This document shows positions 1,050-34,508 of a stretch of DNA of 64,000 bases, piece by piece. Position numbers and translations under genes: made by a program. Source of the DNA: Minisyncoccota bacterium. GTDB lineage: Bacteria; Patescibacteriota; Minisyncoccia; JBAYJV01. Under the pieces are notes generated by a model that was not told where the DNA came from, made no database searches, and saw nothing but the letters and a program-made list of their open reading frames with translations. The stretch lies in assembly GCA_041664925.1 (NCBI GenBank), contig JBAYJV010000001.1, positions 213,438 to 277,437 on the forward strand. The letters are read 5' to 3'. The first letter of the stretch is position 1, and each line of letters begins with the position of its first letter.

Positions 1050-1559
1050 TTACAAAAAAGAGTAAAGTAAAAAGCTTAAAAGCCAGCCTAAAACAGCTCC
1101 GCCCACAATATCAATCGGCCAATGAAGACCGGTAATGATTCGACAAATACCCACTATCAGGCCCATGACCAATACTACCGAACCAAAGATGGGTGAAAAA
1201 TAAAAAATAATTGTTCCTGCGGCAAATAAAGGAGCTGCGTGTCCCGAAGGAAATGCCGGATCATTTTTTTTCTTTTTTAATAATATTTTAGTTTTTTTAT
1301 TAAGATATGGCCGCTCTGTGAAATGAAGAGTCTTAATTAAAACTGCTGCCACCCATGAAAAAGTGCTAATCAACCCAATAGCTATTAAAGAATAACGGCT
1401 TAAGCCAAAGATTTTTGCTAACGAAGGCACCAGAAATAAGATTCCTAAAAAAATTGTAAAATAAAAAACAAAATCTCTTGCCCAGAAGATAAAAAATCTA
1501 TCAAGTTTTTTCGATCTTCCTACCAAGTTATTTAGTTTGAAAAATATTACTCTGTTCAT
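1050..1559 (-). CDS. PAP2-family membrane phosphatase (undecaprenyl-diphosphatase-like)
   Basis: PSGHAA and HWPIDIVGG PAP2 motifs; multiple TM segments. Confidence 0.7.
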   Translation of the reverse strand: MNRVIFFKLNNLVGRSKKLDRFFIFWARDFVFYFTIFLGILFLVPSLAKIFGLSRYSLIAIGLISTFSWVAAVLIKTLHFTERPYLNKKTKILLKKKKNDPAFPSGHAAPLFAAGTIIFYFSPIFGSVVLVMGLIVGICRIITGLHWPIDIVGGAVLGWLLSFLLYSFL

Positions 1560-1568
1560 CTTTTAATT

Positions 1569-2804
1569 TTACATATGCTCACCGAGCTCGCCTTTGATTA
1601 TATCTTTATGTTCTGCTATTCTCTTTTCAAAAACTTTTCCCAAAATACCTGCCAAGAAAATTGAAAGTGCCGCTATTGGAAAGAAAATAACAATTCTCGA
1701 GTCAGGAAAGAGCAAGAAGAAAAAACCAGCAAAAGCGTAGATAAAAAAAGTACCCAAGTTTTGGACAACTTCACAAAAGACAATAAATCTCCCTTCATGA
1801 ATCCTTTCTCTTTGGGTCGTATCATAAATATAGGCAGTTAAAGGAGTTGTATCTAAGGTATCGCCAATTTGAAGGAAACTTTGAGCGGCGACCGCTGAAG
1901 GAGCTCCTTGGACAAAAATTTTGGCAATTTGACCAAGTGATGCCAAGAAACAGCCCGATCGAAACACTTTTATTTTATCGTACTTATCAGTTGCATGAGC
2001 CGTATAGAAAATTATTACTAAAGAAAGTAGTAGAGATATAGAACTAATAATTCCCAAATTGGCGTAATTGATTGCTATAATGAAAAGGAAAAGAGGCCAA
2101 AAAATTGTACTAATCCCAGAGTCAACTCCGTAAAGCATTAAAGATAATGTTTTTAATCGCCATCCTTTTTTGAAAATAAGACCAATTGCTGATTTATATG
2201 AATCTTGATAATGGGGCTTAATTTCAATGCTCAATATCAGAGGAATCATAGATAAAAGAAGAATAATCGTAACAATAATAAATAAAATATGAAAACCAAA
2301 CTCTGTTAAAATGAAAGCTCCTATCAATGGTCCCGCAACTGATCCAGCTAGCGTGATGACATTTAAAAAGCTTAACTGTTTTCCCCTTTTCTTTCTGCTT
2401 GATAATTTTGCAAAATCGGCATGAAAAGCCGGAAGAAAAGTGATTCTATAAAGAGTTGCTGCTATGGGCGCCAAATAAATTAACCAAGCCATTTTCCCTG
2501 AAAAAAATAAAAGAAGATAAAATGCCATTAAAAACGGGATTGAAAGAAGCATGCTATGCTTAACTCCGTACCTGGCCATTAATCTGCCACCAAGAGGAAC
2601 AAGTAAACTGTGTCCTCCTAAAATAAAAGCGTAAAACAAAAAAACCTTAGAAAGACTATTTCCAAAAAAAGTATAAAGAAAAATTGGTTCGTAAAGACCA
2701 ATTAACTGAATGCCGAAACGTCTTAATCCAACACTGTAATAAATCTCATCTACGCTTCGATGAATGAAATAATTGAAAATATGTTTGGGTCTATGAAAAA
2801 TCAT
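1569..2804 (-). CDS. polytopic membrane transporter (MFS-like)
   Basis: 411 aa, about 12 hydrophobic segments; no specific motif recognised. Confidence 0.4.
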   Translation of the reverse strand: MIFHRPKHIFNYFIHRSVDEIYYSVGLRRFGIQLIGLYEPIFLYTFFGNSLSKVFLFYAFILGGHSLLVPLGGRLMARYGVKHSMLLSIPFLMAFYLLLFFSGKMAWLIYLAPIAATLYRITFLPAFHADFAKLSSRKKRGKQLSFLNVITLAGSVAGPLIGAFILTEFGFHILFIIVTIILLLSMIPLILSIEIKPHYQDSYKSAIGLIFKKGWRLKTLSLMLYGVDSGISTIFWPLFLFIIAINYANLGIISSISLLLSLVIIFYTAHATDKYDKIKVFRSGCFLASLGQIAKIFVQGAPSAVAAQSFLQIGDTLDTTPLTAYIYDTTQRERIHEGRFIVFCEVVQNLGTFFIYAFAGFFFLLFPDSRIVIFFPIAALSIFLAGILGKVFEKRIAEHKDIIKGELGEHM

Positions 2805-2814
2805 TGTGTGTCTT

Positions 2815-2890
2815 TTAATTAGTCTCTGAGGACTTGTCTCTCAGGGCTAATCCCTGAGGACTTGTCTCTCAGGGTCAATCCCTGAGGATT
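2815..2890. repeat. tandem ~30-nt hairpin repeat (CCTGAGgacttgtctCTCAGGG x2 plus partial third copy) in the tsaC/transporter spacer
   Basis: direct reading of 2821-2885. Confidence 0.7.
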
Positions 2891-3447
2891 CTTGGAACAT
2901 TTCCAGAAGCATCAATCACTTTTGATGGCTTATGTTCTTCCAGTTCTCCGCCATCTAAAATTAAATCTGGCCTTATCTTTTCTTTTTTAAAAATTTCTAT
3001 AATCCTTCTTATGTCATTCCCTAATGGTTCACCAGAAAGATTGGCTGATGTTTGAGCAAGGGGAAATCCTAGCTCGTCTATGAGCGCTATTACTAGCTGG
3101 GAATTGGGAATACGAATACCAATTGTTTCCTTTTGAAAGGGGAGTTGTCTTATAAGTGGTAAAACAAAAGTATTGGCCGATTCTAATAATCTTTCCTGGT
3201 CTTTTCTTATTGTAGCATAATCTCTGGCCATCAAGATATCCCCAACGAAAGTCCCTATTGGCTTTTCTATGTCTCTTTTTTTTATCTCGAAGATTTTTCT
3301 AATCGCTACCTCGTCAGTCGCATCACACACCAAACCATAAACCGTGTCCGTTGGCACAATAACCACGCCGCCTGATTTGATCACATTGGCAGTTTTTTGA
3401 ATAACTGTTTCATTTAAATTTTCCAAATCAATTTTTAAAATTTCCAT
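2875..3447 (-). CDS. tsaC: L-threonylcarbamoyladenylate synthase (YrdC/TsaC family)
   Basis: VIVPTDTVYGLVCDA YrdC signature; length 190 aa. Confidence 0.8.
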   Translation of the reverse strand: MEILKIDLENLNETVIQKTANVIKSGGVVIVPTDTVYGLVCDATDEVAIRKIFEIKKRDIEKPIGTFVGDILMARDYATIRKDQERLLESANTFVLPLIRQLPFQKETIGIRIPNSQLVIALIDELGFPLAQTSANLSGEPLGNDIRRIIEIFKKEKIRPDLILDGGELEEHKPSKVIDASGNVPRILRD

Positions 3448-6527: not shown

Positions 6528-7037
6528 TTATTCTATTTTCCCCATTTCTATTTTAAACCACGGCGCATAAATTTCTGGATGGTTTTTTATGTCTTGTTTT
6601 AAGTCTTCAATATCAACCCATTTCCATTCTTCAATTTCTTCTGGATTTGGTTTTATTTCATCGCCCTCATATTCTCCAAAAAAAACTGAACACAATTCAT
6701 TCTCAGAACCAATATCTTTATATTTTACTTTATAAGAAAATTTAAATTTATGTTCCAATTCAGCTTCAATGCCTACTTCTTCTTTAAGTCGTCTTTTTGC
6801 CGCATCAAGATATTCTTCGTCTTTTCTTGGATGGCTGCAGCAAGTATTCGCCCAAAATCCTGGCCAAAGCATTTTACCTTGCGCTCTTTTTTGAATAAGC
6901 AATTTTCCTTCACTATTAAAAATAAAAATAGAAAAAGCGCGATGCTTTTTTCCTTCGCCTAGATGAGCTTTTAACTTTTCTTCGCACCCTAAAATATTAT
7001 CTTGTTCATCCACCAAAACTAAAATATCTTGTCGCAT
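6528..7037 (-). CDS. idi: isopentenyl-diphosphate delta-isomerase, type 1 (Nudix fold)
   Basis: WPGFWANTCCSHP and EE..LDAAKRRLKEEVGI motifs. Confidence 0.75.
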   Translation of the reverse strand: MRQDILVLVDEQDNILGCEEKLKAHLGEGKKHRAFSIFIFNSEGKLLIQKRAQGKMLWPGFWANTCCSHPRKDEEYLDAAKRRLKEEVGIEAELEHKFKFSYKVKYKDIGSENELCSVFFGEYEGDEIKPNPEEIEEWKWVDIEDLKQDIKNHPEIYAPWFKIEMGKIE

Positions 7038-7200
7038 AAGTTTAAAAAATTCAAAACGCAAAGCGCAAATCTCAAAGCCACAGCTCAAAATTAAAAACTA
7101 ATAAATTATAAGATTAAAAAGATTTTAGTTTTAAGTTTAGTTTTGACTTTTGAACTTTGAGTTCTGAGTTATCAATGAGTTAATTCAAAATTCTATAATA

Positions 7201-8193
7201 TTATCCCAATATCTCCATAATCGTTTTTGCCAATTTATCCGAATCATGACGAATCAAGGTTCGTTTTAATAAATCACTTTTTTCTTGTTTGTGAATTTCT
7301 CTACTTAACAAATTTTTACCTATAAATACCTTGCCATCTTTTTTGAAATTCTTTTCAGATGGAACCTTTACAAGTTCGCCTTCTTTATTATATTTATTAA
7401 GTAATTTTTTGTCAGGCGTTTCTGTATTAAATAAAACAATGTCAATTGTATTTTTTTCTAGATAACTTTCAATGGTTTGAACAAAATCAAATACAGAAGA
7501 ATTGTCAGCCTGACCATGTTTGGTCATTAAATTAATATTATAGAGAATCTTTGCTTTGGTTTGTTTTAGTGCTTTTGTAACACCATCAACTAAAAATAGA
7601 GGAATTAAGCTTGAGTAAAAATTGCCCGGCCCGATGATAATCAAATCTGCTTCTTTGATTGCAAAAAATGCTCTTGGATTTATTTTCGCTTTTGGTTGCA
7701 AAAATATTCTTTTTAGAGGATGTTTCCTTAATAATTTACATTCGGTAATTTCGTGTTCGCCAAAAAGGATCTTGCCATTTTCTAGTTCTGCCAATAATTT
7801 TGCTTTATTTAAAGTTACAGGAATGACTTTGCCTTGCAATGCTAAAATCTGATGGAGTTTTTCAAGCGCTTGATCAAAGCCACCTTCCATTTTTTCCAGC
7901 GCGGAGATCAAAAGATTGCCTAAGTTATGGCCCTTGAGTCCTCCTTTTGTAAAACGGTAACAAAAAAGCTCGCGCATAATTTCAGAAGATTCTGAAAGCG
8001 CTACCAAGCATTGTCTAATATCTCCGGGAGGAAGCACGCCCAATTCATCGCGTAAGATTCCGCTTGAACCGCCATCATCGGTCATAGCAACAATCGCGCT
8101 AAGATTAACTGGGTATTTTTTTAATCCACGCAAAACTGTATAGGTTCCAGTTCCTCCGCCCATAACAACAATTTTTTTTGTTTTAGCTGTCAT
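7201..8193 (-). CDS. YvcK/CofD-like gluconeogenesis factor family protein (UPF0052)
   Basis: KIVVMGGGTG...TDDGGSSGILR signature. Confidence 0.7.
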   Translation of the reverse strand: MTAKTKKIVVMGGGTGTYTVLRGLKKYPVNLSAIVAMTDDGGSSGILRDELGVLPPGDIRQCLVALSESSEIMRELFCYRFTKGGLKGHNLGNLLISALEKMEGGFDQALEKLHQILALQGKVIPVTLNKAKLLAELENGKILFGEHEITECKLLRKHPLKRIFLQPKAKINPRAFFAIKEADLIIIGPGNFYSSLIPLFLVDGVTKALKQTKAKILYNINLMTKHGQADNSSVFDFVQTIESYLEKNTIDIVLFNTETPDKKLLNKYNKEGELVKVPSEKNFKKDGKVFIGKNLLSREIHKQEKSDLLKRTLIRHDSDKLAKTIMEILG

Positions 8194-8265
8194 TGGAATT
8201 AATATTTTAAAATAATGAATTTTTCCAGCACTTTTCACTTTTAATTTTTAACTTTGCATTTCTTA

Positions 8266-10095
8266 TTATTCTACTGTTACTGATTTTGCCAAATTTCTCG
8301 GCTTATCAATGTCGCAACCACGCAACACCGCTACATAATAAGCAAATAATTGAAGAGGGATAACGCTTAAAATCGGCGTTAACATTTCAAGAGTTTTCGG
8401 AATATAAATAATGTCTTTAGTTATACTTTGTATTTTTTTATCTCCTTCGGTCGCAATCGCTAAAAATGGCCCTTTTCTTGCTTTAATTTCCTCCATAGCT
8501 GAAACTATTTTTTCATAAACACTGTCTTTGGGAGCTAAAAAGAAAGTCGGGAAATTTTCATCAATCAGAGCAATCGGACCGTGTTTCATTTCTCCAGCTG
8601 AATATCCTTCAGCGTGAATATAGGAAATTTCTTTAAGTTTCAATGCTCCTTCTTCTGCGACCGGAAAATTATATTTGCGTCCTAAATAAAAGAAGTCGTT
8701 GTAGTGACAATATTTTTTCGCTAAAGATTTAATAGTATTTTTTTTATCCAATACATTTTCTGCCAGTTCCGAAAGTTTGCCTAACTCATCAATAATTCTT
8801 CTTCCCATTACAAGTGACATATTTCTTTGCCTTCCTAAAAAGACCGTTAAAAGGGCTAGTACAACCAATTGAGATACAAATGCTTTTGTTGAAGCCACAC
8901 CGATTTCCGGACCAGCATGATTATAAATTCCCGCATCAGTTTCTCTGGCAATCGTCGATCCGACAACATTGATAATTCCCAAGGTTAGTACTCCTCTTCT
9001 TTTTGCTTCTCTTATTGCTAATAAAGTATCAATAGTTTCTCCTGATTGAGAAATTGCCAAGATAGCAGTATCTTCGTTCAAGATTGATTTTCGATAACGA
9101 AATTCAGAAGCATTTTCAACTTCGACAGGAATTTCCGCATACTCTTCAATCATGTATTTCCCAACCTTGCCCGCTAAAAGGGCAGTTCCCATGCCCAAAA
9201 TAATAATTCTTTTTATTTTCTTTAATCTGTCTTCCACTAGCTCTAATCCACCAAGTTTAACCATTCCATCTTTTGGAACAATTCTTCCTCTTATCGCATT
9301 CTCAATAACTTCTGGGATCTCATTCATTTCTTTCAACATAAAATGATCATATCCTGATTTCTTAGCCTGTCCAATGTCCCAATCAAGATAATTAGCTGAT
9401 CTTTCTATCTTTTTATTGTCAAGTGTTGAAAGAGAAAAATCTTTATCAGTAATTACTCCTATTTCTCCATCATTTAAATAGATAACTTTTCTGGTGTGAG
9501 CCAAAATTGCCGCTGCATCAGAGGCAATAAAGTTTTCGCCATCGCCCAATCCAACAATTAAAGGACTCGAGTTTCTGGCAAAAACGATTTTTTCAGGATC
9601 TCTTTTCGAAATTACAGCAATTGCATAGGCACCAATAACTTGCCTTAGTGATTTTTTAACCGCTTCTTCGAGAAGATTTTCAAAATTATCTTCGATAAGG
9701 TGAGTTAGAATTTCCGTATCTGTTTCGGTAATAAATTTGTGTCCTTTTTTTTGTAGTTTTTCTTTTATGGTTTTTGCGTTCTCTATAATGCCGTTATGAA
9801 CAAGATAAATTTCTTTTTTGCAATCCCATATGGGATGGGCATTTTTATCTGATGGCTCTCCGTGAGTCGCCCACCTGGTATGAGAAAGACCAGTATTGCC
9901 AGTAATTGTTTTTCCTGAAATTGTTCTTTCTAAATTCTCTATTCTTCCTTTCTTTTTATAACAACCGCCCTTGCCATTTTTACCAATTACAACTATGCCA
10001 GCTGAATCATAGCCACGATATTCAAGTCTTTTAATGCCTTCCATCAATATAGAAAAGGCTTGTTTTTTACCAACATAACCAACTATTCCACACAT
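8266..10095 (-). CDS. glmS: glutamine--fructose-6-phosphate aminotransferase
   Basis: MCGIVGY N-terminal nucleophile, two SIS domains, C-terminal VTVE. Confidence 0.9.
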   Translation of the reverse strand: MCGIVGYVGKKQAFSILMEGIKRLEYRGYDSAGIVVIGKNGKGGCYKKKGRIENLERTISGKTITGNTGLSHTRWATHGEPSDKNAHPIWDCKKEIYLVHNGIIENAKTIKEKLQKKGHKFITETDTEILTHLIEDNFENLLEEAVKKSLRQVIGAYAIAVISKRDPEKIVFARNSSPLIVGLGDGENFIASDAAAILAHTRKVIYLNDGEIGVITDKDFSLSTLDNKKIERSANYLDWDIGQAKKSGYDHFMLKEMNEIPEVIENAIRGRIVPKDGMVKLGGLELVEDRLKKIKRIIILGMGTALLAGKVGKYMIEEYAEIPVEVENASEFRYRKSILNEDTAILAISQSGETIDTLLAIREAKRRGVLTLGIINVVGSTIARETDAGIYNHAGPEIGVASTKAFVSQLVVLALLTVFLGRQRNMSLVMGRRIIDELGKLSELAENVLDKKNTIKSLAKKYCHYNDFFYLGRKYNFPVAEEGALKLKEISYIHAEGYSAGEMKHGPIALIDENFPTFFLAPKDSVYEKIVSAMEEIKARKGPFLAIATEGDKKIQSITKDIIYIPKTLEMLTPILSVIPLQLFAYYVAVLRGCDIDKPRNLAKSVTVE

Positions 10096-10852: not shown

Positions 10853-11689
10853 TTACTCTTTCCACTCTCGAATCGCTTTAGCGTAAGTTTCGGGTGTGCC
10901 AATATCAAACCATCTTCCTGATAATAAATATCCGTAAAAATTATTTTCTTGAATTAACTTGGGAAAAATTTCCTTTTCAATGCTGATTGTCTGGGAATTC
11001 ATATAGTCAAAAATTTCGTATTGAAAAACAAAAATACCAGCATTGACTACATAAGACTGAATATTCTTTTTTGCTGGTTTCTCTGAAAATTCTTTTACCC
11101 GCGATCCTTCCAGTTTAACCGTTCCCAACCCCATTGGATCGGATACCGATGAAAGTGCAATTGTTCCCAACGCTTTATTTGAAATATGGAAATCAATTAA
11201 ATCGTCTATATTAACATCGGCAATTTCGTCAATGTACCAGAGTAAAAATGGTTCTTGTTTAATAAACGGCTTAACAGCCAATAAGGCTGGCGCCGTTCCT
11301 TTTTCTTTCTTGTCGTCAATATAAATGATATTAACGCCAAATCTTTCACCGTTTCCAAAGTAGGCTTTTATTTTTTCTCCCAAAGTTCCAACAACGATAT
11401 AAATATTTTTTATATTATAACCTCTGAGATAATTAATCGTGTGTTCCAAGATCGGCTTGCCCTTGATCGGAATAAGCGCTTTAGGAATTTCGTAAGTCAA
11501 AGGTCTCCAGCGCACGCCCTTTCCAGCAGCCAAAATTACCGCCTGATTAATGCTCGGCCTTAAGCTCTTGGCAATCAAAGATTCGATGGCATGAGATCGA
11601 TTGCGGACTTTTTCGCCATCAACCAATCCATCAATTTTGCCAAGCAATTTTTCGTCTAATGTAATTGTAATGCGTGATTTTTTTGTCAT
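10853..11689 (-). CDS. sugar-phosphate nucleotidyltransferase with N-terminal ribbon-helix-helix (CopG-like) domain
   Basis: N-terminal ITLDEKLLGKID...RNRSHAIESLI (RHH), then LAAGKGVRWRPLT...IPKALIP NTP-transferase motif. Confidence 0.6.
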   Translation of the reverse strand: MTKKSRITITLDEKLLGKIDGLVDGEKVRNRSHAIESLIAKSLRPSINQAVILAAGKGVRWRPLTYEIPKALIPIKGKPILEHTINYLRGYNIKNIYIVVGTLGEKIKAYFGNGERFGVNIIYIDDKKEKGTAPALLAVKPFIKQEPFLLWYIDEIADVNIDDLIDFHISNKALGTIALSSVSDPMGLGTVKLEGSRVKEFSEKPAKKNIQSYVVNAGIFVFQYEIFDYMNSQTISIEKEIFPKLIQENNFYGYLLSGRWFDIGTPETYAKAIREWKE

Positions 11690-11796
11690 ACTTTTTCTTA
11701 TCTATATCTTGCCATAATTTAAAAAATATACAAGCGATTTTGTCATTCTGAGAAACTGAAGAATCCCGCGTATCTTGAGTAGTGTTAATTTTACTT

Positions 11797-11826
11797 GACA
11801 TCTGATAAGAATGTGATAATATATAA
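11797..11826 (+). promoter_or_regulatory. sigma70-like promoter TTGACA-16-TAATAT
   Basis: hexamers read directly; followed by SD AAAGGAGG and ATG at 11851. Confidence 0.5.
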
Positions 11827-11850
11827 GCAAGTGAGAGAAAAGGAGGAGAA

Positions 11851-12243
11851 ATGAGTCGAGAAATTGTCCAAGCGGGATTAACAGGATTTGTTGGACCGAT
11901 TGAACATAGCCTGCTCGATGCCCTAAACAATGCCTGGGATAACCGCACTTCGAGAGATGAAGATGGTTTAAAGAATACGCTTAGTAAGAAAATACAGAGT
12001 TTCGTTGGTCCTTTATTTAGAATAGCTACTAGTGACGGATATAAATGGTTCTGGGCAGCCAATTTCAAAATTGGCGCTGGGAAGTTAGTGTTGCTTTTCC
12101 CTTGGAGCCAAGATTGGAAGAAAAAAGACAGATCTCAGATGGACCGATCAATCGGTATTTATACAGAAGGAGAAGTTGACGACGACGCACTAAACACAGT
12201 TCTTGTTCAAATCATTAGGGCTCTTGAAAGACCAACAAGATAA
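11851..12243 (+). CDS. hypothetical 130-aa protein (G+C-richer cassette gene)
   Basis: own promoter, SD and terminator. Confidence 0.5.
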   Translation: MSREIVQAGLTGFVGPIEHSLLDALNNAWDNRTSRDEDGLKNTLSKKIQSFVGPLFRIATSDGYKWFWAANFKIGAGKLVLLFPWSQDWKKKDRSQMDRSIGIYTEGEVDDDALNTVLVQIIRALERPTR

Positions 12244-12249
12244 GAATCC

Positions 12250-12308
12250 AGAAGGAGCAGAAGAAATCTGCTCCTTTTTTTAATTTATTGAAGTCCGACT
12301 TCGATAAA
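12250..12308 (+). terminator. terminator module: GAAGGAGCagaagaaatcTGCTCCTTTTTTT followed by hairpin TTGAAG-TCCGA-CTTCGAT (direct-repeat copy A)
   Basis: near-identical to 12959-13016. Confidence 0.7.
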
Positions 12309-12420
12309 CGCATTATCCTAAGTATAGCGAAAAATCTCGCGTTTAGTTATTTCCCTTAAAATTCTTCCTCCTACAACGCTACAACATAGAGTCAGGATGA
12401 CAAAAAAAGCACATAATTAT

Positions 12421-12448
12421 TTGACATTAAAAATTATTATGATAAGAT
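12421..12448 (+). promoter_or_regulatory. sigma70-like promoter TTGACA-16-TAAGAT
   Basis: hexamers read directly. Confidence 0.5.
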
Positions 12449-12475
12449 AAAAACCGAACGGATAAAGGAGGCGTC

Positions 12476-12955
12476 ATGAAACAACCAAGTTCGGTCGAAA
12501 AAAACACTCCAATGGCTTTAATCCGCCAGAACCTGTTTGGATGGCTTGATAAAAAGGATTGGACGACACAAGAGCTAGTCGATTGGCTTACTGGTTACAA
12601 ACTCTTAGAAATCTTAAACACAGGATGCGACGACGAACCATATGGCTTAATCGTAAAAGCGCTTGAAGATGGAGTCGAGAGAAATCGGAAAAGACTCCTC
12701 AAGGATGAATTAGCGAGAAGAATCGCTAAACTCCTTAATGAAGGACCAGATGTTAACGGACCATGCGCGTCTCAGATAAGAAATGATCAATTGCTTTATA
12801 ATTTGCTTTTATTAGCAGCTTGCATAAAACGTTATCGAACTCTCCAAAGACCTCTTTGTGATATGCGACAACGAGGCAAATTAATAAACAGAAATTACTT
12901 AGCCATTAGTCTAAAGAGACTCCTTGATGATGCAATCTCACATCAATACAAGTAG
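12476..12955 (+). CDS. hypothetical 159-aa protein (cassette gene)
   Basis: SD AAAGGAGG; flanked by ~58-nt direct repeats. Confidence 0.5.
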   Translation: MKQPSSVEKNTPMALIRQNLFGWLDKKDWTTQELVDWLTGYKLLEILNTGCDDEPYGLIVKALEDGVERNRKRLLKDELARRIAKLLNEGPDVNGPCASQIRNDQLLYNLLLLAACIKRYRTLQRPLCDMRQRGKLINRNYLAISLKRLLDDAISHQYK

Positions 12956-12958
12956 AAT

Positions 12959-13016
12959 AGAAGGAGCAGAAAGAGTCTGCTCCTTTTTTAATTTATCGAA
13001 GTCCGACTTCGATAAA
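12959..13016 (+). terminator. terminator module, direct-repeat copy B (GAAGGAGCagaaagagtcTGCTCCTTTTTT + ATCGAAG-TCCGA-CTTCGAT)
   Basis: see 12250-12308. Confidence 0.7.
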
Positions 13017-13024
13017 TTATCTCC

Positions 13025-13094
13025 AATATTGACAAATAATAAACCTTGTTTTAGGATTGGGACAGTTCTTAAAAAATCTAACAAAGGAGAAAAG
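13025..13094 (+). promoter_or_regulatory. promoter TTGACA-17-TAGGAT and minimal leader (AGTTCTTAAAAAATCTAACAAAGGAG)
   Basis: direct reading. Confidence 0.5.
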
Positions 13095-13589
13095 ATGAAT
13101 GAAAGAAGAAAGACAAAGAAAGAGATTCGAGCAGAGTACGAAAGAAAATGGACTCTGGTAATGGCTCGATGGCTTGGCAGATTTGTCAGGAAGCCCAAAA
13201 ATAATGGTGATATCTTCGTGGGAATTTTCGGCGGCGAAATCGAAATATTTAAAAGACCTGTATATATGACAGATCTCCAAATATCAAAATTGTCGCCACT
13301 GGCTCAGGTAAAAGAAGAAACTAGAATACGGATGAAAAAATTTCCACCATCAGGAAAAAGATGGAACCCATTTAATGATTTCACTCCATGGATGGGTCCA
13401 AAAGGATTGCTTAAGAAAATTAGGACAACAGGTCTTTTGAATGTCTTTCTGGCAAAACTTGATCTTAGCAACCAACTTAATGGTATCGAAGAACTCTTTG
13501 GTTGGTTGGAAAATGATCCAAGTGTATTGGCAAAACTTATGGCCGAAGCGCTTGTCGAGATTCTCGAAGAAAAAAGTTTAAAGCCATAA
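13095..13589 (+). CDS. hypothetical 164-aa basic protein (start MNERRKT; the longer track ORF begins upstream of the promoter)
   Basis: promoter and SD positions. Confidence 0.5.
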   Translation: MNERRKTKKEIRAEYERKWTLVMARWLGRFVRKPKNNGDIFVGIFGGEIEIFKRPVYMTDLQISKLSPLAQVKEETRIRMKKFPPSGKRWNPFNDFTPWMGPKGLLKKIRTTGLLNVFLAKLDLSNQLNGIEELFGWLENDPSVLAKLMAEALVEILEEKSLKP

Positions 13590-25090: not shown

Positions 25091-25876
25091 CTAAACGTGT
25101 TCGCCTCCTCCCCTTAATCCAACGCGTCTCCGTCTTTTTTCATCAGCTTTTCTTTTTTCTTTCTTTTCTTCTTGTAGCGTCCAAAGGAAAAGATAAGTTG
25201 CGATTCTTACTTGTTTTAATGCTTGACTGAAAAGAAAATGATCTTGTTCTTGTTCTAATCTTCTTTCAAAAACTGCCTTAACTTCTGTAAGGAAGTTTTG
25301 ATTTTCGCTAGTGTTTACATGATCATAAAGCATCATTATGGCATCTTCCTGAGAAGGATTATCCAATAAATCAATCCCGTATCCATTTTTGATAAAAACA
25401 TCAATTACTATTCGCCTAATGGTCAAATTTCTTGTTGTCTCAAATAAATCTATTAAAAATTTCTTTACAATGCCTCTATTAGGGTTAACAAGTCCCGTGT
25501 GGTTTCTTAAACATTTCAACAATTCTGTAATGGCCTCTGTCTGTAGTTCAGACCATCTTTCTGGATAAAACATATCTCCAAAATTACATCCCATCAAGTC
25601 TTCCAAGAGATGATGAGTTAGACAAACAAGCGTCTGTTTATTACCAGCATTTGCGTAGGCAACATAAATTCTTATCCTTTGCCATCTTTCATTTATCGTT
25701 AAGTCTCTAACCTGCGCCATTTTAAAGAACAATCCATCGGCTGTTTCCTGGCAATCTGTTTTCTTTATTTCCTCTGAAAACACATCTAAGGAACTCTCTC
25801 CTGGATGCCGAACACCCCAGTCAAAACCTTTTCTGAATGTTTTGACCGCTACCGGCTCGATCGCCTTACCTGTTTG
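25091..25876 (-). CDS. hypothetical 262-aa protein (G+C-richer orphan; start MQTGKAIEP after GGAG)
   Basis: promoter TTGACA-17-TAGGAT about 25905-25933 on the minus strand; terminator hairpin 25040-25075. Confidence 0.5.
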   Translation of the reverse strand, partial: QTGKAIEPVAVKTFRKGFDWGVRHPGESSLDVFSEEIKKTDCQETADGLFFKMAQVRDLTINERWQRIRIYVAYANAGNKQTLVCLTHHLLEDLMGCNFGDMFYPERWSELQTEAITELLKCLRNHTGLVNPNRGIVKKFLIDLFETTRNLTIRRIVIDVFIKNGYGIDLLDNPSQEDAIMMLYDHVNTSENQNFLTEVKAVFERRLEQEQDHFLFSQALKQVRIATYLFLWTLQEEKKEKRKADEKRRRRVGLRGGGEHV

Positions 25877-25973
25877 CATTGCTTTCTCCTTTTCCTCGCC
25901 CGCCATTCTCGGCAGACATCTATATCCTATGTTATTTAACAAAAATTGTCAAGTATTATATAGTGAAAACAAA

Positions 25974-27051: not shown

Positions 27052-27912
27052 CTATAAAGACAAAACAGATTGTTTTGTATATTTTAAATTAAGATTTTTA
27101 TGAATATTTTTTATAAAAATTTTTCCTGTTTTTTTATTATCTTTTTTCTGTGTCCCATTTTTAATGTGATATTCGATTCCGCTATCTTCACAAAATCTAG
27201 TAACTGTTTCAGCGCAATCATGATAAAAGTCCCCCTTATAACTGAATTGTGTCGATTCTACGTTGTAATTCAATTTTCCAAAAATAATTTTATTCACAAA
27301 AGAAACTTTTTTTAGAATTTTTAGTAAATCTTGCTTTACCAAATTTTCAGTTGGATATGGCTCCATACTAATCCAGGTTTTCAAGCCTTTGTTGTGTAAA
27401 AATTTTAATGATTCAATTCTTTTTCCATAAGGAGCTGTGTACGGTTCAAATCTTGTTTTAAATTTTTTATCTAAAGAAACTAAAGTAATCCCATATTCAT
27501 TATTTTTGCCATATTTTTTAGTATTAGTTAGGTCTTTCGGGTAAATTCCTTTTGTTAAAACCGTACAACGAATATTGTCTTTATTTAATCTTTCTATAAT
27601 TCTTAGAGTTAGATCCGTTACTTCTGGGTATTTATACATAAAAGGATCTGTAGAAAAACAGAGATGAACAAATTTAATCTTATTTTTATATTTAGGAATT
27701 TCTTTATCCAGTAGCTCTAAGGCGTTAATTACTATTTTGGGTTGTAACCATTCTTCGTAACTTTTTATTATTCCGCATCTTTTTTTCATCATCATTGCAT
27801 AGCAAGGAAATTTACACCCGTGAGCGCATCCCTCTACATGATTTATACAAAAATCAGCATATTCAACACCGCTTCTATATAATAAAGTTTTTCTTTTTAT
27901 TTGAGAAATCAT
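27052..27912 (-). CDS. radical-SAM-related three-Cys protein (SplB/DNA-repair-photolyase-like, COG1533-type)
   Basis: INHVEGCAHGCKFPCYA resembles the NPYxGCxHGCxYCYA box but with C-x3-C-x3-C spacing. Confidence 0.45.
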   Translation of the reverse strand: MISQIKRKTLLYRSGVEYADFCINHVEGCAHGCKFPCYAMMMKKRCGIIKSYEEWLQPKIVINALELLDKEIPKYKNKIKFVHLCFSTDPFMYKYPEVTDLTLRIIERLNKDNIRCTVLTKGIYPKDLTNTKKYGKNNEYGITLVSLDKKFKTRFEPYTAPYGKRIESLKFLHNKGLKTWISMEPYPTENLVKQDLLKILKKVSFVNKIIFGKLNYNVESTQFSYKGDFYHDCAETVTRFCEDSGIEYHIKNGTQKKDNKKTGKIFIKNIHKNLNLKYTKQSVLSL

Positions 27913-27936
27913 ATTCTTACTTTTATTATAACATTT

Positions 27937-29022
27937 TTAGATTAAGCTGAATAATTCTTTTTCATTAAACGATCTTGCACCTTTTCTTTTGTTATTCCTA
28001 ATTAATTTTCCTTCTTTTTCTAATGAAACAAGAACCTCCTTAAAGTCTTGTTTCCTATAACAGTGTTTTCCTGTTAATAATCTATCTAATATCTTATCCA
28101 ATGAAATATTAACTGTTCCATTAAATACTTTATACACTTCTATTTTTAAATCTTGCAAAAAAAACAAAGTATTTCTTGTTGGTTCTTTTTTAACAAACTC
28201 ATCTTTCATTTTTTCCAATCCTCTAAGATTTTTCGTAGCATATATTAAATAGTAAATGTGATTGCCTATTGAATTTTTAATGTTTTTAACAGCATAGTAT
28301 TTAAAACCAATTGAAATCAGATTTGTAAGATATATGTCTAGATATTTTTCTCTTGCAACTCTTGGAGAAATCCTATTCTTTTTTCTTTCTCGATATACAT
28401 TCTTCCAATCCTTGCAACCAAAAATTAAATCAATTTTATTTTCCATTTCCATATTGATTTCTTTCTTCTCTTCTAGTGGCATATAACGACTAATTGCCAT
28501 ACCGAAAGGAAAATTAATTAAAGCCTCTGCTTTGCTTCTCTCTCCGATCTTTCTAATTGTATCCCAATATAAATCTCCTGCTTGAGGATCTAGTAAAGCC
28601 ATAAAAGGTGTATTTTCATTAAATTGCTTTAAGATTGAATCAATTTCTTTATTGCAATCACCATTTTTTATTACAACGTTCCTTTTGGAAAAATCTCCGC
28701 TTACAATATTTTTTAAACAATCACATTTGTTTTGATCTAGTTCAATAAAAAAATATTTAGTAAATGGAGGTTCTATGCTTAATGATATTAACGTTGATCC
28801 TTTCTTGGTTTCTTTTGTCTTTTTGGTTTTACAAAGCCCAGAGCCAGCAAATGCATCAATAAAACAATATTCTTTAAAGCCTGCAAAATTTAAAATATTT
28901 GAATAAGCACCCAAATATTTTCTAATATATTCTAATTTTAACTCTGTCCATTTTCCTATATCGTTACCGAAAACCTTTTTTGCCATATTTTTATAAATTA
29001 TTATATTTTTTCTTAAATCCAT
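27937..29022 (-). CDS. SAM-methyltransferase-like protein, possibly three-Cys-motif partner (TcmP-like)
   Basis: FIDAFAGSGL motif-I-like box; adjacent to the three-Cys protein; track start at 29049 overlaps the upstream terminator. Confidence 0.4.
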   Translation of the reverse strand: MDLRKNIIIYKNMAKKVFGNDIGKWTELKLEYIRKYLGAYSNILNFAGFKEYCFIDAFAGSGLCKTKKTKETKKGSTLISLSIEPPFTKYFFIELDQNKCDCLKNIVSGDFSKRNVVIKNGDCNKEIDSILKQFNENTPFMALLDPQAGDLYWDTIRKIGERSKAEALINFPFGMAISRYMPLEEKKEINMEMENKIDLIFGCKDWKNVYRERKKNRISPRVAREKYLDIYLTNLISIGFKYYAVKNIKNSIGNHIYYLIYATKNLRGLEKMKDEFVKKEPTRNTLFFLQDLKIEVYKVFNGTVNISLDKILDRLLTGKHCYRKQDFKEVLVSLEKEGKLIRNNKRKGARSFNEKELFSLI

Positions 29023-29055
29023 TTTAACGAACAATAAATAATTATGCAAAAAAAT

Positions 29056-29084
29056 ACCTGTATTAACAGGTATTAAAAACTTCT
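29056..29084 (-). terminator. terminator AATACCTGTtaatACAGGTATTTTTTT for ORF 29106-29555
   Basis: perfect 9-bp stem + T run on the minus strand. Confidence 0.65.
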
Positions 29085-29105: not shown

Positions 29106-29555
29106 TTATTCTAACTTAAGGGTATTATTATCAATAATCTTTCCGTAAAAATCTAACCTTTCACCTGTTTGATCATTAATTCCTAAGCTCAAATAACTAT
29201 TGTCTTTTGCTTTAAAATCCCAAAATCTTTCGCTATCACCTTTTTTAAACATTCCTTCTCCTTGAATTTCTTCAGCGACAGCATGAGTCGAATATAGAAA
29301 TTTAAATTTTTTTCCTTCAAAATTAAGTTCTTTTGAAAACGGTTGCTGAAAAAAAGTTTTTATTTCTTTAACCAAAAGAAACATATTGCTATTCAAGTCA
29401 TCCGCAAAAACATAACCATCATTTAAACAACATTTGATATAAAAACTGCCATCGTCAAACCTGAATTTAACCACTTCTTCTACGATAAAATCTTTTCCAT
29501 CGGCTGATAATTTTATGTTCGGTTTAATTTTTGTACGAAATTCTGCAACTTCCAT
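29106..29555 (-). CDS. hypothetical 149-aa protein
   Basis: ORF track. Confidence 0.45.
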   Translation of the reverse strand: MEVAEFRTKIKPNIKLSADGKDFIVEEVVKFRFDDGSFYIKCCLNDGYVFADDLNSNMFLLVKEIKTFFQQPFSKELNFEGKKFKFLYSTHAVAEEIQGEGMFKKGDSERFWDFKAKDNSYLSLGINDQTGERLDFYGKIIDNNTLKLE

Positions 29556-29567
29556 AAATAGTTTATT

Positions 29568-29807
29568 TTATGATTTCTTTTTTAATTTCTTTATCATATC
29601 AACCAAGGCAATTAAAACACCGATGCCCATCAGTCCATATCCTACTAATCTATTTTCTCCAAAAATAATTCCTGCCAGCACAAAAGCAAAAGCTAAGCCG
29701 GCGAGAGGAGAAAGTTTGCTCCCTGATTTTTTTCCTTTCATAAAAAACATCAAGCTTGCGATAACCGCTAATACTGCTATGGCGATTATAATATAAATCT
29801 GTTTCAT
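29568..29807 (-). CDS. small two-TM membrane protein
   Basis: 79 aa, two hydrophobic helices, Lys-rich C-terminus. Confidence 0.45.
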   Translation of the reverse strand: MKQIYIIIAIAVLAVIASLMFFMKGKKSGSKLSPLAGLAFAFVLAGIIFGENRLVGYGLMGIGVLIALVDMIKKLKKKS

Positions 29808-33741: not shown

Positions 33742-33925
33742 TTTCACCCTCCTTTAGAGATTCTTAGCAAAGTCATGAGCTTAGAAACTCTTAAGTCCCG
33801 TACCGTGCTTGCTCTGGTACGGGACAGTTATTATCAGCACACCTCTTCGTGTACTTGGCGAAGGACTACCTCACCTTTCCTCCCAAGAACTTCTCTTATT
33901 CTATAATATATTTATTTTTTGTCAA
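33742..33925 (-). promoter_or_regulatory. promoter TTGACA-16-TAGAAT with full leader module (AGTTCTTGG, GTCCCGTACCAGAGCAAGCACGGTACGGGAC hairpin, TAAGAGTTTCTAAGCTCA..., GCTAAGAATCTCTAAAGGAGG)
   Basis: direct reading; the -35 overlaps the 3' end of udg. Confidence 0.6.
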
Positions 33926-34508
33926 GCACTTTCTTGATTATTTTAAAGTCTTCTATAAGGGTTTCTTTTTGATTAGCATCATATACAGCAACAGCGGGGT
34001 GATAGAGAGGAATGATTTTTCGCTGTTTTTCTTCAAAAACTTGTCCTCTAATTTTGCTAATTCCTTGAACTTTATCGGTGAAACCAAATTTTTCTAAAAT
34101 ATATCTAGTCGCAAAATTGCCTAAGGTACAGATTATTTTTGGGTTAATAATTTCAATTTGCTTATCTAGATAAGAAACGCAATTAGAAATTTCGTTAGGT
34201 AGGGGATTTCGATTATCGGGCGGACGACATTTTAAAATATTGCAAATATAAACATCTTCTCTTTCAAGCCCAATCGCTTCCAAAAGTTCCGATAAAACTT
34301 CGCCTGATCTACCGCAAAATGGCCGACCCTGCAAATCTTCGTTTTTTCCCGGGGCTTCGCCAATAAACATAATTCCAGCGCTATGACTTCCTTGGCCAAT
34401 TACAGGCAAGGTTCGCGTTTTATAGAGCGGACAGTTTTGACAAGCAATAACTTGGTTTTTTACATCAAGCAATCCTTTGTCGGCTTTTGTTAGTTTATTT
34501 TTATCCAT
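33912..34508 (-). CDS. udg: uracil-DNA glycosylase, family 4
   Basis: GEAPG motif and CQNCPL Fe-S Cys cluster. Confidence 0.8.
   Translation of the reverse strand: MDKNKLTKADKGLLDVKNQVIACQNCPLYKTRTLPVIGQGSHSAGIMFIGEAPGKNEDLQGRPFCGRSGEVLSELLEAIGLEREDVYICNILKCRPPDNRNPLPNEISNCVSYLDKQIEIINPKIICTLGNFATRYILEKFGFTDKVQGISKIRGQVFEEKQRKIIPLYHPAVAVYDANQKETLIEDFKIIKKVLDKK

Follow-up and report, generated by a model that had tools for sequence, protein, structure and literature searches.

The window analysed here, a 64,000-nucleotide stretch of a Minisyncoccota contig, carries a two-gene cassette that encodes TcmP, the three-Cys-motif partner protein, and a radical S-adenosylmethionine (SAM) protein, called rSAM below. 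We observed that in related loci tcmP alleles are swapped in situ beside a retained rSAM gene, that the two genes make up one functional unit and that the cassette moves horizontally between genomes. We tentatively favour the reading that the two proteins are subunits of a single SAM-dependent enzyme which targets DNA bases, TcmP being the specificity subunit, and that this enzyme acts where hosts, phages and mobile elements are in conflict. The genes themselves were already annotated, as NCBI names both of them in this Paceibacterota metagenome-assembled genome (TcmP and radical SAM protein); new here are their linkage and fusions, their folds, a relative with a HIRAN domain, the restriction-modification (R-M) context and the replacement of TcmP alleles. 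An earlier note, made from the sequence alone, had singled out the pair as a possible nucleic-acid modification or repair system of no established function. The parts of the cassette are the following:

27937..28986, minus strand: tcmP gene, 349 amino acids from its ATG (TIGR04474, PDC-M41A, AlphaFold2 (AF2), Foldseek)
27052..27912, minus strand: rSAM gene, 286 amino acids (Pfam PF04055, AF2, Foldseek)
27913..27936, minus strand: spacer of the operon junction, 24 nt from the tcmP stop to the rSAM start (open reading frame (ORF) calls)
27796..27831, minus strand: predicted [4Fe-4S] box of rSAM, GCAHGCKFPCYA (C29, C33, C37), with CX3CX3C spacing (translation)
28834..28863, minus strand: TcmP motif I, putative SAM-binding loop FIDAFAGSGL (D44 97% and G50 94% conserved over 67 TcmPs)
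28573..28596, minus strand: TcmP motif IV-like LLDPQAGD, with D133-P134 where amino-methyltransferases have DPPY (D133 100%, P134 97%)
27940..28179, minus strand: C-terminal domain of TcmP, about 80 amino acids, three helices and a beta hairpin, winged-helix-like (AF2)

The evidence that carries this reading comes from a comparison of loci. For this purpose we used 80 species-representative genomes with an rSAM 53-80% identical to that of the window, of which 77 were assessable; three loci lying at contig ends were set aside and the rSAM gene of one locus is frameshifted. The median pairwise identity across loci is 60% for rSAM and 21% for TcmP, and in 99.3% of the 2221 comparisons rSAM identity is the higher one; the cases with a more similar TcmP were left unused, as the local alignments may be short. 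The two identities are weakly correlated (rho 0.34), and when rSAM identity is held fixed that of TcmP is bimodal. The following pairs of loci combine close rSAMs with distant TcmPs:

L041 and L078: rSAM 92%, TcmP 28%
L016 and L018: rSAM 87%, TcmP 26%
L032 and L037: rSAM 87%, TcmP 31%
L083 and L084: rSAM 85%, TcmP 29%

The DNA of L032 and L037 is syntenic, with about 7 kb upstream 83% identical, the rSAM gene 82% and the downstream region 75% identical, and the intervening tcmP genes have no nucleotide similarity at all. Between L041 and L078 the common part is restricted to the rSAM gene (88%) and about 40 nt upstream of it. Exchange of tcmP alleles thus takes place in situ, beside an rSAM gene that is kept, and in this TcmP behaves as a specificity or sensor subunit. 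This is reminiscent of the swapping of target-recognition domains in Type I R-M HsdS and in Type IIG enzymes, where a conserved catalytic partner is likewise served by a specificity component exchanged by recombination. However, the parallel is no more than an analogy: TcmP is unrelated to HsdS, the whole tcmP gene is swapped and not just target-recognition domains, and sequence-specific DNA recognition by TcmP is putative.

The two genes are tightly linked. Among the assessable loci, tcmP lies directly upstream of rSAM on the same strand in 67, is fused to it in two and is adjacent but divergent in one, so that linkage amounts to 70 of 77 (91%), with seven loci devoid of tcmP; this bears out the neighbourhood conservation that the earlier note had proposed to check. 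The ORF-based gap between the two genes, in 67 loci other than that of the window, ranges from -56 to +148 nt and mostly from -13 to +47 nt. Proteins in which TcmP and rSAM are fused were found four times (L073, 596 amino acids; L015, 588; P0177, 634; P0180, 592), and the fusion arose independently, at least four times. No third gene recurs across the fetched loci. The hosts of the sampled loci belong to both bacteria and archaea and include the Candidate Phyla Radiation (CPR), Bacillota, Actinomycetota, Gammaproteobacteria, Omnitrophota, Woesearchaeota and Methanosarcinales, among others. In addition, a HIRAN domain is joined to one CX3CX3C relative of rSAM (P0185; its 34 bits exceed the gathering threshold, GA) and a sigma-70 region-4 helix-turn-helix (HTH) domain to another relative.

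Individual loci depart from the common plan. The actinomycetotal contig L015 has both a split tcmP-rSAM pair and the fused protein of 588 amino acids, at 6873-8849 (+) and 11462-13228 (-), about 2.6 kb apart, and the two systems may be two specificities side by side. In L009, from Patescibacteria, the position of tcmP is taken by a gene for a CcrM-like N6_N4 DNA adenine methyltransferase (1378-2196, plus strand, 214 bits), which overlaps the start of rSAM (2180-3100), so that TcmP may have been naturally replaced there by a bona fide DNA methyltransferase. The protein P0178 (1002 amino acids) carries a CX3CX3C-clade rSAM domain at 746-996 behind a fused region of 745 amino acids, in which a methyltransferase-like pattern was seen by eye and neither Pfam nor a custom TcmP hidden Markov model gave a match. 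YkgJ-type CxxCxxCC proteins, which could be redox helpers, are fused to one rSAM relative, P0202 (residues ~327-412), and encoded near the TcmP pairs of L001 (7515-7745) and L092 (3537-3803). As a conserved accessory the YkgJ-like protein was rejected, being non-recurrent in the 80 loci.

The upstream protein is a TcmP. It scores 172.6 bits with TIGR04474 (cutoff 53) over positions 1-258 of the 263 of the model, which settles the family that the earlier note had named and for which it had suggested a profile search; no Pfam domain was found in it at E <= 0.01. As a TcmP, it stands beside a protein with an N-terminal three-Cys box, namely rSAM, encoded 24 nt downstream on the same strand. Its AF2 model, with a predicted local distance difference test (pLDDT) score of 90.4, adopts a class-I methyltransferase fold, as had been surmised from the motif I-like box. 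The best Foldseek match is E. coli RlmJ (6qdx_B, E 1.1e-6, TM-scores TMq 0.45 / TMt 0.56), followed by the DUF519 protein 2oo3 (E 1.2e-6); Trm1, like RlmJ a methyltransferase of rRNA/tRNA, and viral RNA methyltransferases are further matches. RlmJ is the base-flipping methyltransferase that forms m6A2030 in 23S rRNA. By eye, the motif order of RlmJ/DUF519 is also that of TcmP (N-terminal Lys, hhDxxAGxG, GSP, acidic motif II, hhDP). TcmP differs from them by having D-P in place of DPPY and an additional winged-helix tail, and it is mobile and hypervariable, whereas RlmJ is a housekeeping enzyme.

Eight residues (K17, Y24, D44, G50, G63, D133, P134 and R167) are 88-100% conserved over the 67 TcmPs, whose median identity is about 21%, and all are present in the window protein; we read them as a probable active-site signature. 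In the tail, AF2 predicts helices at 276-288, 296-303 and 312-324 and strands at 328-330 and 345-348. There, the window protein gives sub-threshold matches to PF22560, GMT-like winged HTH (E 0.0056), and to the MCM4 winged-helix domain, and the TcmP of L007 matches PF22560 above GA. The TcmP encoded at L084:6223-8004 (593 amino acids in total) has an N-terminal extension of about 240 amino acids to which no family could be assigned.

rSAM, the product of ORF 27052-27912, clears the Pfam Radical_SAM family PF04055 (44.4 bits, GA 29.5). It remains below all specific NCBIfam cutoffs, including those of the COG1533-type models PA0069 (43 bits for a cutoff of 360) and Rv2578c (39 for 430), it is not the radical SAM mobile pair protein B (TIGR04470, 36.1 bits for 410), it falls short of the threshold of DUF5131 (Gp37/Gp68, PF07505; 22.1 bits, GA 28.9), and the spore photoproduct lyase (SPL) family PF20903 gave no match at E <= 0.01. 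We found 3806 homologues, of which the top 120 are 68-81% identical; at JGI, homologues bear the label 'DNA repair photolyase'. Within E <= 1e-30 the family falls into at least 129 clusters at 50% identity, and its sequences number in the thousands. Foldseek places SPL first (4fhc, E 4.6e-7, TMq 0.61, 295 aligned columns), and its top matches are all radical SAM enzymes (SPL, SuiB, PFL-AE, QueE, LipA), consistent with a partial TIM-barrel radical SAM fold in a medium-confidence model; the C-terminal ~35 amino acids are predicted to be disordered.

The similarity to SplB/COG1533 that the earlier note had seen is matched by an SPL-like fold and, below threshold, by the COG1533-type models. SPL is the top structural match, its box GCxHGCx(Y/F)-CYA is very similar and DNA would be the presumed substrate of both. 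On the other hand, the scores are 39-43 bits for cutoffs of 360-430, a Pro precedes the third Cys of rSAM, and SplB is a protein of 340 amino acids unpaired with TcmP, whereas the window rSAM has 286 and is obligately paired.

The C-x3-C-x3-C box reported before is indeed encoded at 27796-27831. Its spacing does not obey the canonical CX3CX2C of radical SAM proteins, and the consensus of the clade is GCxHGCx[FY]PCYA. CX3CX3C was observed in 119 of the 120 closest homologue clusters, in 89 of the 93 rSAM matches of the fetched loci and in 83 of the 107 assessable representatives at 50% identity; the spacing is a clade character and not a chance event. The canonical GCxHGCxYCYA occurs in 21 representatives, all of them distant (about 45% identity or less), which argues that the Pro is a derived insertion of one residue in an SplB-like lineage. 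All three Cys of the box are 100% conserved, and C85 (in CFxTDPF) and C241 are 97% conserved. In the literature, a search for 'CX3CX3C' returned no radical SAM cluster motif, only a probable typographical error for NifB and a peptide motif.

The closest known relatives of the cassette are PDC-M41 and PDC-M30, which were put forward in PADLOC by 'guilt-by-embedding' in BREX, DISARM and Type I R-M loci (Payne et al. 2024, bioRxiv 10.1101/2024.01.29.577857) and which, like all 145 PDCs, are stated there as candidates only. Their A component is a TcmP, and the window TcmP scores 132.9 bits with PDC-M41A (E 5e-39) and 37.8 bits with PDC-M30A. They too are two-gene cassettes located in or beside R-M/BREX loci, and the three-Cys box of the partner likewise ends in CYA. 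In contrast, their B component is DUF5131, proteins of which score 330-346 bits with PDC-M41B/M30B, whereas a search of the PADLOC models at E <= 0.1 gave nothing for the window rSAM. The box of DUF5131 is CX6CX2C (GCTKVxPGCxHCYA), not CX3CX3C, and the classic Acetobacter and Leisingera pairs have DUF5131 before tcmP, the reverse of the gene order in the window. Three types of TcmP partner can thus be listed with their boxes:

DUF5131 (Gp37/Gp68): GCTKVGPGCDHCYA, CX6CX2C
canonical radical SAM protein (Nostoc plasmid): GCLHGCTFCYV, CX3CX2C
radical SAM protein of the window clade: GCAHGCKFPCYA, CX3CX3C

Since rSAM matches no PADLOC model, the cassette is a partner-swapped variant of the PDC-M41/M30 candidates that current tools would not call. 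The idea of a 'three-Cys motif' variant needs a caveat: the three-Cys box is real, but the partner of tcmP in the PADLOC models, and in RefSeq on the plasmids examined, is DUF5131 with CX6CX2C, whereas the rSAM of the window falls in another clade, which is SplB-like. DUF5131 and SPL form neighbouring sub-clusters of one megacluster at RadicalSAM.org (PMC9477430). In the literature that could be searched, TcmP, DUF5131, COG4422 and PDC-M41/M30 have annotation mentions only and no paper establishes a function, in agreement with the earlier note.

The surroundings of the pairs are rich in R-M genes. Among the 113 genes that immediately flank 67 pairs (130 Pfam families), R-M is the commonest class, with N6_N4_Mtase found 9 times, N6_Mtase, MmeI_Mtase and ResIII 3 times each, and Eco57I, Type_ISP_C and HSDR_N twice each. 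Some of these genes abut or overlap the pair, as do those for a Type I HsdR (L008), Type IIG/ISP enzymes (L035, L036, L097) and an MmeI-like protein (L001). In Bacillota, an element with the order tcmP-rSAM-Mod-Res (Mod 710 and Res 954 amino acids, only 1 nt between rSAM and Mod, TnpV-like genes close by) is nearly colinear in L076, L077, L086 and L087 (6814-13757) and has relatives in L079, L081 and L085. The same element was also seen in fecal contigs named 'Bacteriophage sp.' (MT836112). Classic TcmP pairs on plasmids adjoin BREX, Abi genes, a DNA methyltransferase and an integrase, and in S. meliloti tcmP neighbours the defence gene Hna (PMC12445080). As for mobility, 56 of 57 loci have a cassette poorer in G+C than the flanking DNA (median difference -6 points, p = 6e-11), and the closest relatives of the cassette come from different phyla and domains, where their contexts are unrelated.

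In the mechanism that we propose, TcmP would bind DNA by means of the winged-helix tail and of its variable regions and flip the target base into an RlmJ-like pocket made of K17, Y24, D133-P134 and R167, where its own SAM site (D44xFxGxG and acidic motif II) would probably methylate the flipped base. The [4Fe-4S] cluster of rSAM, carried by C29/C33/C37, would cleave a second SAM into a 5'-deoxyadenosyl radical able to take a hydrogen from the presented base or from its new methyl group, giving a further-modified base; C85 may serve as a radical relay or hydrogen donor. Such a base would alter the handling of the DNA by nucleases, for instance those of neighbouring R-M systems. The labour would be divided between TcmP, the exchangeable specificity subunit, and rSAM, the conserved catalytic subunit, and we infer that the unfused pairs also form a complex. 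Successive action on one nucleic-acid base is known from the synthesis of wybutosine, in which the class-I methyltransferase Trm5 acts first and TYW1, a radical SAM enzyme, elaborates the methylated base. In addition, radical SAM isomerases tailor thymine hypermodifications in phage DNA (PMC13458397). Neither Trm5 and TYW1 nor the phage isomerases form an obligate mobile gene pair, and no homology to them was shown beyond the level of the superfamily.

DNA is proposed as the target because rSAM is SPL-like, TcmP has a winged-helix tail and an RlmJ-like base-flipping fold, relatives are fused to HIRAN and sigma-70 region 4, and the genomic company points in the same direction. A role in conflict is suggested by the R-M neighbours, by the matches to PDC-M41A/M30A and by relatives located beside BREX, Abi and DNA methyltransferase genes.

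Several points weigh against this proposal. A destructive role resembling restriction would explain these data just as well. The AF2 model of rSAM has medium confidence only (pLDDT 73.6). The fold similarities, to SPL as well as to RlmJ, are remote: the PDB, searched by sequence and by profile, gave no match for either the rSAM or the TcmP family, and hhalign of the TcmP profile with E. coli RlmJ yielded a probability of 0.8% and aligned motif I alone, so that the link to RlmJ is one of fold and by-eye motif order only. That CX3CX3C is a SAM-cleaving [4Fe-4S] site is a prediction from the sequence. In TcmP, the full (D/N)PP(Y/F) motif is absent and just D-P is kept, and methyl transfer is for this reason not assured. 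As regards the context, R-M genes represent about one eighth of the flanking genes, a minority, there is none adjacent to the window cassette, and no dedicated nuclease partner is conserved across loci, which bears on the purpose that a protective modification would have.

Another explanation, possible though less likely in our view, is a stand-alone restriction-type defence against phages, in which TcmP would sense foreign DNA, for example a phage-specific modified base or a sequence that it flips into its pocket, and rSAM would be the effector, with no need for self-modification. The effector would act by radical DNA damage (strand break or base destruction) or by making a viperin-like toxic nucleotide analogue. 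TcmP with DUF5131 makes up the PDC-M41/M30 candidates predicted from embedding in BREX, DISARM and R-M loci; hypervariability and allele swapping beside a conserved effector are usual for the sensor or specificity parts of immune systems, pairs are found in the setting of defence islands, beside BREX, Abi, Hna and R-M genes, and the pair is rare in sequenced phages. However, the Synechococcus phage Ssp-JY39, a cyanophage, carries a classic TcmP and DUF5131 pair, and many copies, including that of the window, lie outside recognisable defence islands. The weak pVip matches that would speak for a viperin-like effector come from one distant relative with the canonical motif and are marginal (E ~1e-4). 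Moreover, the intact motifs I and II and the D-P of TcmP would be superfluous in a pure reader, and we know of no radical-SAM 'nuclease'.

Repair, the less likely of the two functions that the earlier note had suggested, appears improbable. An SPL-like rSAM would reverse a lesion (a crosslink resembling a photoproduct, or else aberrant alkylation) that TcmP finds and flips, and for this speak SPL as the closest solved fold, the sub-threshold PA0069/Rv2578c (COG1533-type) similarity together with the JGI labels, and the HIRAN fusion, which would suit recognition of damaged DNA or DNA ends; radical SAM genes of the SplB type reportedly also occur in SOS-linked contexts. Nevertheless, a fixed lesion is ill-suited to a partner whose identity is 21% between close relatives and which is replaced by other alleles, and the distribution of the pair is sporadic, low in G+C and due to horizontal transfer. 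No NCBIfam or Pfam model of SPL reaches threshold, and many of the hosts are groundwater or gut anaerobes that are not exposed to UV.

Very improbable, finally, is a mobile rRNA/tRNA modification (of the Cfr/RlmN type or an RlmJ-type m6A) conferring, for instance, resistance to a ribosome-targeting compound or toxin: the best folds of TcmP are rRNA/tRNA methyltransferases (RlmJ, Trm1) and viral RNA methyltransferases, and Cfr is a mobile radical SAM gene able to modify rRNA, but a conserved RNA target is at odds with the hypervariability and allele replacement of TcmP, the winged helix, the HIRAN and HTH fusions and the R-M embedding indicate DNA, and the nearest fold of rSAM is the DNA enzyme SPL and not RlmN/Cfr. 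It is thus mainly the hypervariability of TcmP and the DNA-linked fusions and contexts that disfavour both repair and RNA modification.

The remaining features of the window concern the start of the cassette and its neighbours:

29000..29027, minus strand: putative promoter TTAAAA-16-TATAAT just 5' of the tcmP ATG (10/12 match)
29053..29074, minus strand: putative terminator, a hairpin with T-run that separates the DUF4178 gene from the cassette (hairpin scan)
29106-29555, minus strand: DUF4178 protein gene, upstream neighbour (30 bits, GA 25)
29568-29807: gene for a membrane-like protein of 79 amino acids (ORF calls)

The promoter-like sites are fewer than in shuffled sequence, so that the promoter prediction is weak, and terminator-like hairpins number 2 for 0.8 expected. 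The maximal upstream ORF, 27937-29049, opens at TTG. That this co-oriented ORF contains FIDAFAGSGL was correctly noted before, and its start has to be revised from 29049: the tcmP homologues all begin with MAKK/MKKK at the position of ATG 28986, the NCBI gene model opens at the same ATG, and the promoter- and terminator-like sites lie within the 5' extension of the longer ORF, so that the true start is almost certainly 28986. For rSAM, the NCBI protein begins with MSQIK (285 amino acids) and the ATG-initiated one at 27912 with MISQIK (286 amino acids); NCBI appears to start one codon downstream, at a non-ATG codon.

The low G+C content reported for both genes was confirmed, with 27.4% for rSAM, 27.5% for tcmP and 27.3% for the cassette, compared with 35.7% for the window. 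G+C at third codon positions (GC3) is 20.6% in the cassette versus 27-34% in neighbouring genes, and within the window the cassette is the segment of its length with the lowest G+C (z = -3.28). No att-like repeats, integrase or adjacent tRNA were found around this island, which is flanked by PgeF on one side and the DUF4178 gene on the other. The DUF4178 gene is AT-rich as well (G+C 29.1%, GC3 21%) and absent beside the relatives of the cassette; it may be a separate acquisition. The two neighbours mentioned in the earlier note, the DUF4178 and the 79-amino-acid membrane-like proteins, do exist. As components of the module they were rejected, as they are missing in the closest relatives and no third gene recurs, and they are bystanders since the closest TcmP relatives (72-75% identical) occupy unrelated contexts. 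Elsewhere in the window, an ORF of 283 amino acids at 25091-25942 (-), with a Lys/Arg-rich C-terminus and a G+C content normal for the window, has no Pfam, NCBIfam or PHROG match and marginal ones in PADLOC (BrxF 0.0057, AriB 0.0076). The product of 33912-34508 (-) shows a GEAPG...RPFCGRSG pattern that by eye resembles family-4 uracil-DNA glycosylase.

To our knowledge, very few radical SAM enzymes act directly on DNA, namely SPL and a few phage tailoring enzymes. We consider it conceivable, though not probable, that TcmP-rSAM represents a new class of programmable DNA-targeting radical enzymes, in which an exchangeable RlmJ-like subunit would read and flip particular DNA bases for a conserved SPL-like rSAM with its CX3CX3C cluster. 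They would either set a new kind of hypermodified base as an epigenetic self-mark or restrict foreign DNA by radicals, without a nuclease. The function of the pair is directly testable by experiment. Defence-finding tools model just the DUF5131 form and so miss the rSAM variant, and with the CX3CX3C box the canonical motif of radical SAM proteins would have one more well-populated exception. The rSAM family is present in bacteria and archaea, even in the tiny genomes of the CPR, in which few accessory genes are retained. Should the pair modify or attack DNA, the biology of restriction-modification and epigenetics would gain a new chemistry, and there would be an exploitable natural system of modular build, in which specificity subunits can be swapped around a conserved catalytic one.

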